Made by a program: the position numbers and the translations under genes. From the IMG/VR virus record IMGVR_UViG_2671180921_000030, positions 1 through 45,744 of that record: 45,744 bases of DNA. One strand, 5' to 3'. The notes beneath the pieces were generated by a model. That model had not been told where the DNA came from, did not search any database, and saw nothing but the letters and a program-made list of their open reading frames with translations. The stretch is from a virus. Taxonomy: Duplodnaviria; Heunggongvirae; Uroviricota; Caudoviricetes. Positions 3,407 through 39,349 of the stretch are shown here, piece by piece (position 1 is the stretch's first letter; every line of letters starts with the position of its first letter).

Positions 3407-6071
3407 TTGCATACTCCTTAGCCCAGCGGGGCAGTGATAACGTTTTAATAGCTGGCCATTCATCGGTATTCAGGCAGTCAGCCAGGGTCCTCAGATTGCG
3501 GTGATATTCCTGCTGGCCTGCCAGTTTTGCTTCTTCGCCCATCATGAAAATCTCAACCGGGTAACGTCCGCATTCAACAGTTGTGCTGGCAACCAGAAAA
3601 ACGAAAGTTGGCAGCACACCAAACTGTGCTTCATAACCGTCACTGTAGAATGCATCCTGAACGTGATAGCGGTAGTCGTAATAAGCCGTTTTGAATCGTT
3701 GAATATCCGCTGTGGTTTTCACGTCCATGATCCAGTGAAATTCAGGAATAATTTTGTCCGGACGGCACCGACACAAAATTCCTGTTTCCGGATCTTCCCA
3801 GTAAATTGATGATTCAGCGTGTCCGGCGCTTTCCACAAGCCATTGACCCAGCGGCAAAGCCATAACGCTCTGATACATGAGTTCAATTTTCCGGCCTTCT
3901 TCGGCAGTGATAACCGTTTTTCCTGTGCTTGCGCATTCCATCAGAAACGCTTTCTCTTCTTCTTTTCCGGCGTTTGTACGGCGGTTAAATTCAGGTGCTA
4001 CGATAAAGCGGTTACTGAATTCTTCCGGTTCAAGTACACGGCAGTGGAAAGCGGTTCCTAAATCGAGCGTTTTTGTCTTTGTGGTGTCCACAGGGGCATT
4101 TTTACGCCACAAATACAGCGCCGGAGTATCAGCAATGTCGTCGAGCTGAGACTTACTGACACCGGGACCCGCGTGGTAATTCTCATTCGAAATTCCGTAA
4201 TAAATACCAGGCTCTATGTCTCCTGCGATTACGGGATCTGCGACTTCGCCAGTTTCATCACTGCAATCGCGATGCAGATCGCTGCCAGCATTCTCATTGT
4301 GCGGATGTTCAGGGCCTTCCATTTCCTCCGGCTCTTTTTCCTGAGATTCATCCAGATTTTCTTCATTAAAGGTTTCCTGATACGTTGCGTCGCCCATCAC
4401 CGCGCCACAGTCAGGACAGTTGCCGCCGCCAGCCTGACCGCAGGCATTGCAGACTTTTTCCAGTTCCTGTTGCGCTTCTGGTTCATTTTGTCGCGCATTT
4501 TGGCCGTTTTGTTCCGATTTTCGGTCGTTCTGTTCTGTTTCTGGCTGATGCTGGTACACAGAATCGCGGGTCTGGATCCCTTTAACCCATTTCGGATCAT
4601 TCGGGTCGCTAATCCCTTCAACAAATTCTCCGCGAGAGGCAGCCAGTAATTTGTCTGCATCGACAGGATTTTTGGGCGGAATGTTTTTCCGGGCTTCATG
4701 GAGTTCTGCCCGCAGTTTCTGATATTTCGCATCAACAGAATTTACCTGTGACTGAGCATCCAGCGGCTGCGTGTCCTGATGATGTTCAGTTGCATCCGGT
4801 TCCACTGTTTCAGCCGTTGCCTGTTCATCTGCCATTGCGCAAGATGGTTGCGGTTTTTCTTCATCATCCTGTTTTTCTTCTTCTGTTACACGCTGCGGCA
4901 TCGGGGCAGAGGAGCGACCGCAGGCAATATCCACGATTTCCGGATCAGGGTTGGCATGATCGGTTTCAGTCAGTACTTTGTTCAGATATTCAGTGACGTG
5001 TGCGGGGATGACCTCGATCCCAATTGGTGCTTCTTTTACGGACGCAACCACGATGGCGCGGGAATAATCCAGCCCGCCAGGCATGGTGATGAATTTGTCG
5101 CGGAAAACAGAAAAGGGCGGTTTATTTTCAGCGATAATTTCCTCGACACGTTTAGCGTGTGCCGGATGAAGGTTATAAATGTCCACGTCCATTGAACGAG
5201 CCAGTACGCCAGTGGCTACGTCGCGCGCCAGTGACGTCAGATCGTGAACGAAACCTTCGCCGCGATCGGTGAGGTTCCCGCCGCCAGCATTAGCGCCGGA
5301 AGCCGTGCGCGTGATGCGTGAAACACGATTTCCTTTTCGCCATTCTTTTGTCAGAAGACTGCGATCAATGTGTTCGGTATCCAGCCAGGCTGAAATGAAA
5401 TTCTTAAATTCATAGGGCTGATGTTTTTTCGTGATAGAGAACACTGCCTTAATTGCATCAGTCAGGCGGAGCAGGGCGGCATTATCCAGAGTTGTCGGTT
5501 CTGCCATGCTGCGTATGGCCAACAGCAGATTCTGGACATAGCTGTTTTCCTGATCCATCTCAAGAGCAGTAATGTGTTTGCGTTGTTCACGGGTGGCATG
5601 ATGCAGGTATTTCCGATCCCCGGCTGCATACGTAAATATGTGCAGAAGACGCTGTGTGAACCGCAAAGTGGCTACAGAGACTTCGCAATCCTGGCAATCC
5701 TCGTGGGCGTCTGCCTGCGCGTTTTCTTCCTGGCCTCCCGCCAGTTCTTTGGTTTCTTGAGCATTATCCTGGTGGTGAACGTCGTCTGGCGCTGCTCCCG
5801 GTTTTAGTTCCCAGGTCATGGAGTCTTTGCTGAGTTGATAGCGGTCACTCCAGGTAAAATCGATCTCACCTTCAGGGGGAAGGTCATTAACGACAGGAAA
5901 ATTCGTGGCAACAGGTTTAAAATAGCTGCTCAGTTTTTTGCCTGACTTAACGAGCAGGTAGTCCAGAGTGGCACAGGTCGATTCAAGATCGTCGCTTGCC
6001 CACAGGACGACGTCAGGTTCACCGGATGATTTTTTCGCTTTCCGTAACAGGAAGAGTGGTTTTGTGCTCAT
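3399..6071 (-). CDS. recE: Exodeoxyribonuclease VIII (RecE)
   Basis: 890-aa ORF beginning [14 protein letters not shown]; acidic linker region; upstream of and overlapping recT. Confidence 0.85.
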
Positions 6072-35791: not shown

Positions 35792-36826
35792 ATGTCGAAA
35801 AACTGGATGCGTCACTTTGAATTATTGCTTGTTAATGATAAGGGCGACGGGATAAAAATTTCTGAGCTTAAAGTCACTTTCAATATTCAGAAAATGCCTG
35901 CGACCATATTTAATGGATTCGTTGGGAATTTTAAGGTTTATAACCTGTCCCCTACCACTCAGAACCGGATTATGCAGAAGGAGTTTTCGCGTATACAGGT
36001 TATTGCCGGATACAAGGGGCAACCGGATGCAGCAGGTAATTATCCTGATGAAAACGTTGGTATGATATTCAATGGAGATATCCGTTTTACTGTTACTGGT
36101 AAAGATAATGCCACAGACAGTTGGATCATGTTGCAGTGTATTGACAGCTGGGAAGGCCACCTGAACGCAAGTGTGAAAACCACAGTGGCAGCTGGCTGGA
36201 AGTACAGAGATCTTTTCAGTCTGGGTATGAAATCATTCGAACCATATGGCATCGAATCCGGCGCAGTTCCTGACATGCCGGAAACGGTATTTCCCCGAGG
36301 TCGCGTTGTTTATCAAAACACATCAAGGTTGATGAATCATATCGCAGGGCAGTGTAAAGCTAACTGGTGGTATGAAAATAATCTGGTAAATATTGTTCCT
36401 GAAGATAAATATATTGGTGTTGCTACGGTGTTGAATGCTAACACCGGGCTTATCGGTATGCCACAGCAGACGATGGGAGCTGGCGTAAATGTCAGATGTC
36501 TGATTAATCCAAATATTAAGCTCGGTGGGCTTATTCGTCTGGATCAGGCATCTGTATACCGTGCCTCTTTGAGTAATGACCAGGTAGCGAAATCGCCAGC
36601 ACGACTGGATGAGTCTGAAAGCGACGGTAATCTCTACGTTAACGGTCTGCCAGGCATGTCACAGCCTGCCAGCATTAATACTGACGGTGATTACATTGTG
36701 GGCAGCATTGATTATACTGGCGACACCCGAGGGCAGGCGTGGTATATGGACCTGCTTTGCCTGGCTAAAGGTGGCAAAGAACTATTGGCAAAAGGCACTT
36801 TGGACAAAGTCGGAGATGTAGAGTGA
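35792..36826 (+). CDS. Baseplate hub-like protein
   Basis: 344-aa ORF before the spike/W/J genes. Confidence 0.5.
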   Translation: MSKNWMRHFELLLVNDKGDGIKISELKVTFNIQKMPATIFNGFVGNFKVYNLSPTTQNRIMQKEFSRIQVIAGYKGQPDAAGNYPDENVGMIFNGDIRFTVTGKDNATDSWIMLQCIDSWEGHLNASVKTTVAAGWKYRDLFSLGMKSFEPYGIESGAVPDMPETVFPRGRVVYQNTSRLMNHIAGQCKANWWYENNLVNIVPEDKYIGVATVLNANTGLIGMPQQTMGAGVNVRCLINPNIKLGGLIRLDQASVYRASLSNDQVAKSPARLDESESDGNLYVNGLPGMSQPASINTDGDYIVGSIDYTGDTRGQAWYMDLLCLAKGGKELLAKGTLDKVGDVE

Positions 36827-37158
36827 AAAAAGTATTTTTTTGTTTATTCTTGGCCCTGCCGTTAACAGTTTCGGCGGCAACGCAGTGCGGACCATTCCGC
36901 TTTGATGCTGGTAATGATGGCCTCATGCACATCAATGGTCAAAAGCCAGAAACACAAAAAATGACCTTTTTGAAACAAAAAGACGATTTCGATAATGTCA
37001 TGATGCAATGGATGTTACCTGATCCTAATACTGGACGTTGGTTAGGTATGGACTACATCAAACGAAACAAAAAAGCGATCCTCAACGTTGAAGTTATCCG
37101 CAAAAATATGGACGAGCCTCGGGAGTTCTGGACGTATGATTGCCGGAAGGTGAAGTGA
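36823..37158 (+). CDS. Signal-peptide-bearing small protein inside the baseplate operon
   Basis: GTG start overlapping the upstream stop (GTGA) with GGAG upstream; N-terminus MKKVFFCLFLALPLTVSAATQC. Confidence 0.45.
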   Translation: MKKVFFCLFLALPLTVSAATQCGPFRFDAGNDGLMHINGQKPETQKMTFLKQKDDFDNVMMQWMLPDPNTGRWLGMDYIKRNKKAILNVEVIRKNMDEPREFWTYDCRKVK

Positions 37159-37385
37159 ATTACATTGGCGTCCAGCTTCTGCAGAACAGCATGGATGCGC
37201 CGAAAATCATCGAATCTTTCCCTTGTAAAAAAGTGGCTGGGTGAGAGTAAGAAATTTTAACCAGTTCTCCTTTCTCTCCTTAGAAAAGAGCAAAGCATTA
37301 GTCTAGAATATGGATTAATGAATAAAACAACAGGTTGTTGATGATGCCTTCCAATGATAAATTCCTCCGTTAAGGAGGATGATTA

Positions 37386-38159
37386 ATGTCACTTGCACTG
37401 TATAGCAAACTGAATGAAACGCTTGAGATGCTTACTTCACGTATTGATGAAGGGCAGCAACTGGATGCTTTTACGCTAAAGCGAGTTGTCTCTGAAGCAG
37501 GCAAAATCCCTGATGAGCCAGTTAAGTTGATGGTGTTGGCTCTGGCTTATGGAGCTGCGCATCAACATGTTGAAGCTGTCGGTTTTTTTCAGGAGGCAGT
37601 TGCATACCGTGACGAAACAGTAGCCAGAAATTATCTTTCTTACCTCAGTCATACTGGACAGTATGAATTGTACCGAGAAGAGGCTGTGAGGTTAGCTCGG
37701 GAAATTACCAGCCTTGCTTTGTGCATACGAGCAAGGAATGCAGCCTATGCTGACGGCGATGGTGAACTATCACTCTTTTTTGCTCGAAAAGCTCTGTCTA
37801 TGATCGGAAGTGAGAGCGAGCGAGAAAGCATGGAGTCAGATATCATGGAAAAAAAACGGGCATTAGATACATTCATAAGTGTGACTGATTTAAGCACGAA
37901 TGAGATAAATCTTCTTTCCAGAACAATTACTAATGTCGCTAAGAATTATGGTGTTTTAGCTATTTCTCATGACTATGTCACAAGCCCGGATGGGGATGCT
38001 GGCATAGTTTGTGATGTTTTATGTGAGGATGCCGATATGCTTTCCGATATGGATATTGACGTTGCTACTGAAATTGCAATGAATGAGATCTTCGCTGGAA
38101 AGAATGTGACGGCCTGGTTCCGCGGGCGTAATCGGCAGGAGATTCACTTCACGATATGA
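37386..38159 (+). CDS. Hypothetical protein, first gene of an inserted two-gene module
   Basis: 257-aa ORF after a 227-bp AT-rich leader with TAAGGAGG; ATGA overlap with the next gene. Confidence 0.5.
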   Translation: MSLALYSKLNETLEMLTSRIDEGQQLDAFTLKRVVSEAGKIPDEPVKLMVLALAYGAAHQHVEAVGFFQEAVAYRDETVARNYLSYLSHTGQYELYREEAVRLAREITSLALCIRARNAAYADGDGELSLFFARKALSMIGSESERESMESDIMEKKRALDTFISVTDLSTNEINLLSRTITNVAKNYGVLAISHDYVTSPDGDAGIVCDVLCEDADMLSDMDIDVATEIAMNEIFAGKNVTAWFRGRNRQEIHFTI

Positions 38160-38536
38160 GTATCCAAGGAAAAGAGTTCATTGACGCATCCCGTGCATGT
38201 TTAGACACTGGTATTGAGTCTGGTTTCAGAAGTGCTATTTCACGGGCATACTATGCGTTCTACCATGAAACATGTGGCCTTTTGACGTGTTGCCCGCCGA
38301 CAACACATGATGGAGTTGTTCAATATCTTATTTCGGATGCAAGGCGGAAGGATGAACCTTATGAGTTAATGTCTCTTATCCAGTTGGGGGCAGTTCTCAA
38401 ACAGCAAAAAATGAAGCGTAAGCGCGCGGACTACGATCTAACAGAGACTATTTTGCAAACTGAAGCAAGTTCATCTATTGCAGTGGTGAACAAGATGTTG
38501 GACAAAATAGCAGAAATGAAATCCCAAGTAGCCTAG
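38156..38536 (+). CDS. HEPN-like small protein
   Basis: 126-aa ORF with R-x6-H motif (SRAYYAFYHE); terminator follows. Confidence 0.45.
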   Translation: MSIQGKEFIDASRACLDTGIESGFRSAISRAYYAFYHETCGLLTCCPPTTHDGVVQYLISDARRKDEPYELMSLIQLGAVLKQQKMKRKRADYDLTETILQTEASSSIAVVNKMLDKIAEMKSQVA

Positions 38537-38553
38537 CAAAAAGTTTATTTACG

Positions 38554-38578
38554 AACCCGCCATCCGGCGGGTTTTTTG
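38554..38578 (+). terminator. Rho-independent terminator closing the inserted module
   Basis: Stem cccgcc/ggcggg, 4-nt loop, T6. Confidence 0.5.
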
Positions 38579-38596
38579 CTTTCTGGAGACATATGA

Positions 38597-39349
38597 ATGC
38601 CCGTTTCTTTAAGCGCTCAACTTGGTAGCAAAGAACAGGCCGATGTAAGACTTGCTGGCTCTGTCATGTCGGCGCTGCGTGTTTCTATGCCCGGTATCGT
38701 CCAGTCATTTGATCCGGACACGGTAACAGTGGTTGTTCAACCTGCGATTAAAGGCTATGAGCCGGACTCAAATGGAATCAACCAGTCGACGACATTACCC
38801 CTGCTGGTGGATGTGCCAGTGGTATTTCCGCGCGGCGGAGGCTGTACGTTGACTTTTCCAGTTAAAGCCGGTGATGAATGTTTGGTGATTTTTGCCGATC
38901 GTTGTATTGATTTCTGGTGGCAGAGTGGCGGGATACAGGAGCCGGTCGATGACAGAATGCATGATTTATCGGATGCGTTTTGTATTGTCGGTCCCCAGTC
39001 GCAGGCAAGGAAGATTAGCGGTATTAATACCAGTGCCACACAGTTGCGTAGTGATGACGGCAGCACCTATTTTGAGCTTAATCCTGATACCAGGAAAATT
39101 AAAATTGTCGCTCCGGGTGGTCTTGATGTGGTTGCCCCTCTGGCTGATTTTTCTGAGAAAGTAACCATTCATGGCCTGTTAACCTGGATGGGTGGCATGG
39201 TGGGGTCTGTGGTTTCTGGTGTGGCTTCAAAAATCACTGGTGCTGTTGAGTTTTTGGGTAGCGTGAAGGCTAACGGCAAGCCAATTGATGATACGCACAC
39301 TCATGGTGGTGTTCAGCGCGGTGGAAGCAATACCGACGGAGTAAACTGA
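38597..39349 (+). CDS. Baseplate spike protein (gpV-like)
   Basis: 250-aa ORF upstream of W- and J-like genes. Confidence 0.65.
   Translation: MPVSLSAQLGSKEQADVRLAGSVMSALRVSMPGIVQSFDPDTVTVVVQPAIKGYEPDSNGINQSTTLPLLVDVPVVFPRGGGCTLTFPVKAGDECLVIFADRCIDFWWQSGGIQEPVDDRMHDLSDAFCIVGPQSQARKISGINTSATQLRSDDGSTYFELNPDTRKIKIVAPGGLDVVAPLADFSEKVTIHGLLTWMGGMVGSVVSGVASKITGAVEFLGSVKANGKPIDDTHTHGGVQRGGSNTDGVN

Follow-up and report, generated by a model that had tools for sequence, protein, structure and literature searches.

Proteins of the AF0298-like branch of the HEPN fold (HEPN-T) typically lack the histidine of the HEPN motif, often having an aspartate in its place, and carry a second conserved histidine in an insert between helices 2 and 3; an alternative active site formed by this insert histidine and the motif arginine was proposed for them by Anantharaman et al. 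(PMC3710099). The HEPN protein of Retron-Kva2, described in a 2026 preprint, has no Rx4-6H motif; its H64 and R122 lie on different elements, both are needed for toxicity and defence, and a partner protein keeps the HEPN protein inactive by wrapping around its active site. In the case of HepS of prophage Gifsy-1, a single HEPN protein mediates abortive infection and itself senses tail-tip proteins (PMC13043305). Here we describe a swappable cassette in the tail-baseplate operon of an Escherichia coli prophage; its two overlapping genes encode a TPR-repeat protein (A) and, after it, a small HEPN-fold protein (B). The cassette lies in IMG/VR record IMGVR_UViG_2671180921_000030 (Caudoviricetes), and the window, as used below, is the whole stretch of 45,744 nucleotides that was analysed. 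An earlier reading of the DNA alone, here called the original prediction, had seen a HEPN-like two-gene module with its own promoter and terminator inserted into the baseplate operon; the three open reading frames that it listed (111, 257 and 126 aa), their overlaps and a 227-bp leader are all located where it had placed them.

From the fold of B, the order of the genes and their context, we hold with moderate confidence that the cassette is an autonomous two-gene conflict module, toxin-antitoxin-like or abortive-infection in type, with a partner other than an MNT nucleotidyltransferase. It consists of the following parts, given in window coordinates:

37232-37385, plus strand: cassette-specific leader, with a 22-nt block, a palindrome, -35/-10-like elements, a hairpin and a Shine-Dalgarno (SD) sequence
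37386-38159, plus strand: gene A, 257 aa, with TPR-like repeats and an unmatched C-terminal domain; proposed regulator, antitoxin or sensor
38156-38536, plus strand: gene B, 126 aa, with a HEPN fold of the AF0298/UPF0332 (HEPN-T) type; proposed to act as the toxin or RNase effector

The genes overlap by 4 nt (ATGA) and are transcribed in the same direction as the surrounding late structural operon, and their GC content at third codon positions (0.38 in A and 0.41 in B) lies below that of neighbouring genes (0.44-0.55).

Profile and predicted fold both place B in the AF0298/UPF0332 branch of HEPN-fold proteins. Its AlphaFold model is confident (predicted local distance difference test, pLDDT, 92) and has the HEPN-T architecture, an up-down bundle of four helices in which helices 2 and 3 are separated by an insert. 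In the Protein Data Bank (PDB), a profile built from 33 relatives matched a "HEPN domain-containing protein" (9xbd, E=1.3e-7) and the UPF0332 protein AF0298 (2hsb, E=1.5e-3), and a broader profile of 17 diverse relatives matched the same two entries at E=7.6e-10 and E=5.8e-5, respectively; PDB entry 9xbc was also matched by the family profiles (E=1e-7 to 8e-10 for 9xbd/9xbc). Among close relatives of B, PF05168-type matches are weak and confined to 5 of 33, and window B alone gives none; the B-like partner of an A-family protein at one related locus, L018, passes the PF05168 gathering score (25.4 vs 22 bits). All of the 52 relatives of B found in databases are from Enterobacterales or Aeromonas. 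Profile search thus bears out the HEPN similarity of the original prediction, on the basis of a motif other than the one it had named.

The motif that had been named, SRAYYAFYHE (R30-x6-H37), is present in B but is not the HEPN catalytic motif, as it sits in helix 2 (model residues 21-42) and its histidine is not invariant, H37 being replaced by Asn in the L004 variant. The canonical place of the HEPN motif is the end of helix 3; the sequence of B there is R88-K-R-A-D92-Y93, which lacks a histidine, and the canonical Rx4-6H is absent from the helix 3/helix 4 junction. The residues invariant in 17 relatives, which are 27-83% identical to B, are E21, R25, R30, Y32, Y33, P47, H51, L81, R88, D92 and Y93. 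Of these, H51 (codon at 38306-38308) lies in the insert between helices 2 and 3 and, together with R88 (38417-38419) and D92-Y93 (38429-38434), aligns with the corresponding residues (H, R, D and Y) in 9xbd and 2hsb; B has, in other words, the HEPN-T combination of a motif arginine at the end of helix 3 and an insert histidine that replaces the motif histidine. Its fold and these residues indicate that B is probably an RNase with a split His/Arg site (H51 and R88) and a toxic effector.

The two closest solved structures differ from Y to F at the residue aligned with Y93 (RNRSDYDL in 9xbd, RNRSDFDL in 9xbc), which suggests that the depositors probed that tyrosine; no paper on 9xbd or 9xbc was found.

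Protein A is acidic (isoelectric point 4.7, net charge -16, of which about -8 falls in the C-terminal domain) and is modelled (pLDDT 92) as helical repeats over residues 1-137, a long helix over 143-167 and a helix-strand-strand-helix-strand unit over 171-248. TPR Pfam models match 11 of 64 relatives of A, and a profile search of the PDB returns only TPR and PPR proteins. Against 1.84 billion representatives, the A profile found about 90 full-length relatives of 245-290 aa, among which no fusions and no added or informative domains were seen, and its remaining matches are generic TPR proteins at positions 33-100. No alignment column is conserved in at least 90% of the 64 relatives and, given this absence of conserved residues and the strongly acidic charge, A does not look like an enzyme when judged from its family. 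A lysozyme-like PDB match of A, obtained with the single sequence (E=0.02), was rejected, as the family profile did not reproduce it.

The features of A bear directly on whether the pair could be a divergent HEPN-MNT system in which A acts as the transferase, which we regard as very improbable. Such an arrangement would suit the HEPN branch of B, which normally pairs with MNT (PMC3710099), as well as the position of A, which is upstream as MNT is, and the invariant Y93 next to the motif arginine, at which 9xbd and 9xbc differ. However, neither A nor any of its 64 relatives matches a nucleotidyltransferase family; a GSx10DxD motif is not conserved, the chance matches seen in 2 of the 13 loci being at different places; the A family lacks an invariant acidic residue; and the predicted C-terminal topology of A, helix-hairpin-helix-strand, has no counterpart of the helix that separates strands 1 and 2 in the Pol-beta fold. 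The candidacy of A as an MNT was therefore rejected on motif, conservation and topology.

The two genes travel together. An A-like gene stands directly upstream of a B-like gene in 13 loci, with an overlap of 1-14 nt, which agrees with the two-gene unit of the original prediction, and in every one of these loci A diverges faster than B (identity to the window proteins is 67% for A and 78% for B in Citrobacter koseri, and 18% and 36%, respectively, at L018). Copies of the pair at the baseplate hotspot described below occur in Citrobacter, Klebsiella, Pectobacterium, Pantoea and others, and the pair is also found in the following settings:

L005, Dickeya prophage remnant: antirepressor and Arc gene directly after the A/B pair
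L012, Klebsiella phage ST405-OXA48phi1.3 (MK416008.1), 4280-5396: pair between tail genes and tape measure
L013, chromosomal site: pair flanked by an esterase gene and an ABC transporter; phage genes absent within 5 kb
L018 and L019: pair beside Fic and Ogr/Delta genes
L021 and L022: pair flanked by two integrase genes at the end of a prophage; this variant is indexed in 205 collection blocks

Because it occupies non-tail and non-phage sites, the pair is mobile and not structural. The properties looked for in a two-gene toxin-antitoxin or abortive-infection system, namely a conserved operon, an upstream overlapping partner and a mobile, patchy distribution, are all found here. At L012, a 245-aa A-like gene is followed by a B-like region that is annotated as two short coding sequences and in which tblastn covers B residues 1-103 at 38% identity; this region could be a frameshifted or decaying copy.

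These settings also bear on a second alternative, that the pair is a counter-defence module with which the phage sequesters or degrades a host defence component or signal during infection. The pair is embedded in a late structural operon and points the same way, a TPR protein could bind a host protein, and the A and B genes alone were found in only 2 of 5426 complete E. coli genomes, all of which such a role would accommodate. A lytic-cycle gene would nevertheless be useless at L013, a site clear of phage genes within 5 kb, or at the integrase-proximal L021, and the pair has a conserved promoter-like footprint of its own and the antitoxin-first, overlapping order typical of toxin-antitoxin modules, so that we consider counter-defence quite unlikely.

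Comparison with related prophages identifies the interval from about 37232 to 38539 as an exchangeable accessory cassette, located in a hotspot within the tail operon of a Pam3/PhiTE-type myovirus. The backbone on either side comprises:

35792-36826, plus strand: baseplate hub gene, 344 aa, left backbone; PF22759 E217_GP41 (E=1.4e-7), phrog_196 baseplate hub (E=8e-80)
36823-37158, plus strand: 111-aa gene whose product has a signal-peptide-like N-terminus, conserved backbone and not cargo; phrog_3443 (E=7e-48)
37159-37231, plus strand: conserved left junction of the hotspot; homology to L003 (a prophage with DUF4282) extends to 37231 and to L004 to 37161
38553-38584, plus strand: terminator-like hairpin (38553-38574) and T-run, conserved right border of the hotspot
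38597-39349, plus strand: central spike gene, 250 aa, right backbone; PF18352 (E=1.5e-44), PF18946 Apex motif

In pairwise BLAST comparisons, homology ends on the left at 37161 (L004) or 37231 (L003) and restarts on the right at 38540 or 38554. The flanks are 98-99% identical among related prophages while the cargo that separates the 111-aa gene from the spike gene differs, as follows (coordinates are those of the respective locus):

L003, 3599-3838: 79-aa DUF4282 gene (phrog_12129), the commonest cargo among the E. coli matches listed; function unknown
L004: pair of 266 and 126 aa (TPR+HEPN variant)
L009: pair of 243 and 142 aa
L010, 2130-2585, opposite strand: 151-aa gene (phrog_26342), function unknown
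L011 (E. coli 5CRE51, NZ_CP021175.1), 3484-5035: Arc-Arc-antirepressor set resembling P22 immI

Other TPR+HEPN variants are thus also among the cargo at the same flanks, and the tail-module hotspot of the original prediction is confirmed by gene order, the same site holding different cargo in related prophages. The presence or absence of the cassette among otherwise near-identical phages is a feature of morons. The whole 2-kb region was found in 1 of the 5426 complete E. coli genomes and its flanks in 195 genomes; megablast gave no match in phage records, B had one distant match there by tblastn, A had none on plasmids by tblastn, and no plasmid was seen to carry the A and B genes. To the extent of the literature searched, this hotspot between the hub-linked gene and the spike gene was not found described. 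The immI-like region at L011, made up of two Arc-family genes and an antirepressor with a P22 AR C-terminal domain, is located within the baseplate operon.

Such exchange of cargo contradicts a third alternative, that A and B help to build the baseplate, as tail-assembly or structural accessory proteins, a role that would explain why the pair lies between hub and spike genes and recurs there in several genera. Close relatives with 98-99% identical flanks carry unrelated cargo instead, the pair is found outside any tail operon, as would not be expected of conserved tail components, and B has a HEPN fold; we find a structural role barely credible.

The extent of the insert differs at both ends from that originally predicted. 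The signal-peptide gene had been counted as part of the insert, and the terminator as the cassette's own. The hairpin (a 9-bp stem with 6 GC pairs) and the T-run that follows it are indeed present, but both elements belong to the backbone, because an identical 111-aa protein (WP_000755137.1) stands beside different cargo in L001, L003, L004 and L011, and because the hairpin is common to all variants, its sequence being shared by L003, L004, L006 and L007, all of which have other cargo, with homology to L003 and L004 resuming at the right border given above. The 111-aa gene starts with a GTG that overlaps the hub stop codon as GTGA, and the N-terminus of its product, MKKVFFCLFLALPLTVSAA, is signal-peptide-like by eye. 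This exported-looking product (phrog_3443) is a fixed part of the baseplate operon and is translationally coupled to the hub gene. The strong terminator-like hairpin sits within the operon, 12 nt 5' of the spike start codon, and is kept in all cargo variants; with a terminator in this position, the downstream baseplate genes need read-through, antitermination or a downstream promoter.

The full leader between the 111-aa gene and A (37159-37385, 227 bp) is AT-rich, with a windowed GC content of about 0.39-0.42 against 0.45-0.55 in the flanks, and contains, 8 nt 5' of the A start codon, a strong SD sequence, AGGAGG (37373-37378), both as originally described. A consensus promoter scan of the leader returned one weak 9/12 site (37281-37309). 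When the leaders of the closest variants are aligned, E. coli, Dickeya and C. koseri share a 22-nt block, TGAATAAAACAACAGGTTGTTG (37319-37340), without a single difference, and Klebsiella has it in nearly the same form. Within this block lies the palindrome AACAAC-AG-GTTGTT (37326-37339), and a -35-like TTGTTG (37335-37340) is separated by a 17-nt spacer, which varies among genera, from an extended -10-like element, TGATAAATT (37355-37363), which reads TGnTAAATT when aligned across variants. This conserved footprint (37319-37363) is better evidence for a promoter than the consensus scan. It may be a promoter with an operator, for which the palindrome, overlapping the -35 element, is a candidate. 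At 37363-37379, an anti-SD/SD hairpin can be drawn as TCCTCC-GTTAA-GGAGGA; the leader RNA folds no more stably than shuffled sequences (z=-0.56). One possibility is that transcripts started at the putative promoter do not include the 5' arm of the hairpin, whereas late read-through transcripts include it and so are translated less.

The elements that are directly supported, namely the fold and conserved residues of B, the A-then-B order, the mobility of the pair and the hotspot, can be joined into a mechanism whose further steps we infer. First, A would be made ahead of B, to which it would be translationally coupled, and would bind B and keep it inactive. Second, the TPR part of A may recognise some trigger, for example a protein from an infecting phage. 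Finally, B, as a dimeric HEPN RNase using H51 and R88, would upon release cut cellular RNA and arrest translation, leading to abortive infection or, if the genes act as a toxin-antitoxin pair, to addiction to the element. In a lysogen, the pair would be expressed from its own promoter. A broader proposal, which we put forward as possible but doubtful, is that the TPR-CTD/HEPN-T pair (CTD, C-terminal domain) represents a new family of prophage-borne abortive-infection systems, with a non-enzymatic TPR protein that would hold a split-site (His51/Arg88) HEPN RNase in check and also detect a protein of the incoming phage, and that the tail-operon interval is a previously undescribed defence/immunity hotspot in which such cassettes are exchanged; the anti-SD hairpin might then silence late read-through, with the cassette's own promoter active in the lysogen.

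Several observations weigh against a conflict module with a toxic RNase. Scans of A, B and the 111-aa protein with Pfam, NCBIfam and PADLOC gave nothing useful, neither A nor B being matched by Pfam, which the original prediction had named as a check; no known defence or toxin-antitoxin profile matched among the window proteins, and PHROGs placed the three proteins in families of unknown function only. B is near neutral (isoelectric point 6.7) and not basic. HEPN domains also occur as non-catalytic binding modules, such as MtlR (PMC3710099), and no evidence that an AF0298-type HEPN is an RNase was found in the literature examined. The promoter-like hexamers of the original prediction are not above chance, with 6 consensus sites in the region against 7.3 +/- 2.4 in shuffles; of the promoter and terminator that a moron has of its own, the first may be represented by the -35/extended -10 footprint conserved in four genera, the consensus scan being at chance level, and the second, recognisable by consensus, belongs to the shared flank. 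Lastly, located as it is in a late operon, the cassette may be expressed mainly in lytic growth, a pattern that would be as compatible with benefit to the phage as with defence of the host.

Some of these points would favour a non-toxic regulatory pair, in which a non-catalytic HEPN protein binding RNA or a nucleotide would, with the TPR protein, modulate phage or host expression, for example the timing of lysogeny or lysis. The absence of the canonical Rx4-6H histidine from B, the precedent of MtlR, the non-basic character of B and the fact that the same hotspot can hold a regulatory Arc-Arc-antirepressor set all agree with it. Still, H51, R88 and E21 are invariant in relatives that are only 27-40% identical, which fits an alternative active site and not a degraded one; a split H/R arrangement has been reported to be catalytic in the retron type IX HEPN; and the pair has the mobile, patchy distribution typical of conflict systems, with copies in islands and next to integrases. 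We therefore view a regulatory pair as unlikely and retain the conflict module with B as its candidate effector.

If B is an active RNase, it would provide direct evidence for the His/Arg alternative site that was predicted in 2013 for AF0298-type HEPN proteins, would show that this HEPN branch can also be controlled by means other than MNT, and would make the TPR partner a tractable system in which to study trigger sensing. An inactive B would leave the pair as one more uncharacterised moron. Candidate HEPN systems are common; what is concrete here is the split site, the new partner and the hotspot. Reading between the two conserved flanks of the latter is a simple way to find more accessory and defence genes in widespread enterobacterial prophages.

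How does the cassette compare with systems already described? At the level of its setting, it resembles the accessory hotspots and morons of P2 and P4 (PMC9122126), which have fixed conserved flanks in near-identical prophages and interchangeable cargo, including a HEPN-domain gene. It differs from them in that the site lies within the baseplate operon of another phage type, with Pam3/PhiTE/E217-like tail genes, and in that its cargo, the functions of which are predicted only, includes an immI-like antirepressor set. HepS is, like the cassette, a prophage-borne HEPN for which defence of the lysogen against other phages is proposed or shown; here, however, a separate TPR protein is always present, and the likeness is drawn from the description of HepS. 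DS-28, a two-gene HEPN system of DefensePredictor, was considered as a match and rejected, because its HEPN is canonical (RNSVAH) and its partner is unrelated. The DefensePredictor tables contain neither the accessions of the pair nor B-like sequence words, and the pair is also absent from PADLOC 2.0 and not covered by the NetFlax paper; no paper describing a pair of a TPR protein and a UPF0332-type HEPN was found in the literature searched.

Type VII HepT-MntA is similar to the pair in having two small genes, the neutraliser upstream and overlapping, and a conserved tyrosine beside the motif arginine. In contrast to HepT, B has no RX4HXY but R-x3-D-Y, in which the tyrosine is kept and the histidine is absent, and the pair has neither a nucleotidyltransferase partner or conserved GSX10DXD motif nor an MNT gene among its neighbours. 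The module is thus not a HepT-MntA system, and with no MNT partner and no conserved GSX10DXD, neutralisation by AMPylation is unlikely. The retron type IX HEPN resembles B in the absence of Rx4-6H and in its conserved histidine and arginine on different elements, H51/R88 and H64/R122 being likened by description. The PADLOC model HEPN_IX matches B-like variants weakly and mostly over part of the model (E=1.7e-6 for L004, about 1e-3 for L013 and L021, ranging to 9e-3) and does not match window B, and no reverse transcriptase, noncoding RNA or winged-helix protein is near the pair in the loci examined, so that the module is not a type IX retron.

In sequence and fold, B comes closest to the AF0298/UPF0332 HEPN proteins (PF05168; 2hsb, 9xbd), with which it shares a length of about 125 aa, the AYYA helix, the insert histidine and R-x3-D-Y at the end of helix 3. 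It departs from them in that window B falls below the Pfam threshold, in that its family is confined to Enterobacterales plus Aeromonas, and in that, in the loci examined, the B family is never beside an MNT gene and has a TPR protein as its partner instead. As read from its two protein sequences and their setting, the module is best read as a HEPN-based two-gene conflict module with a new partner.

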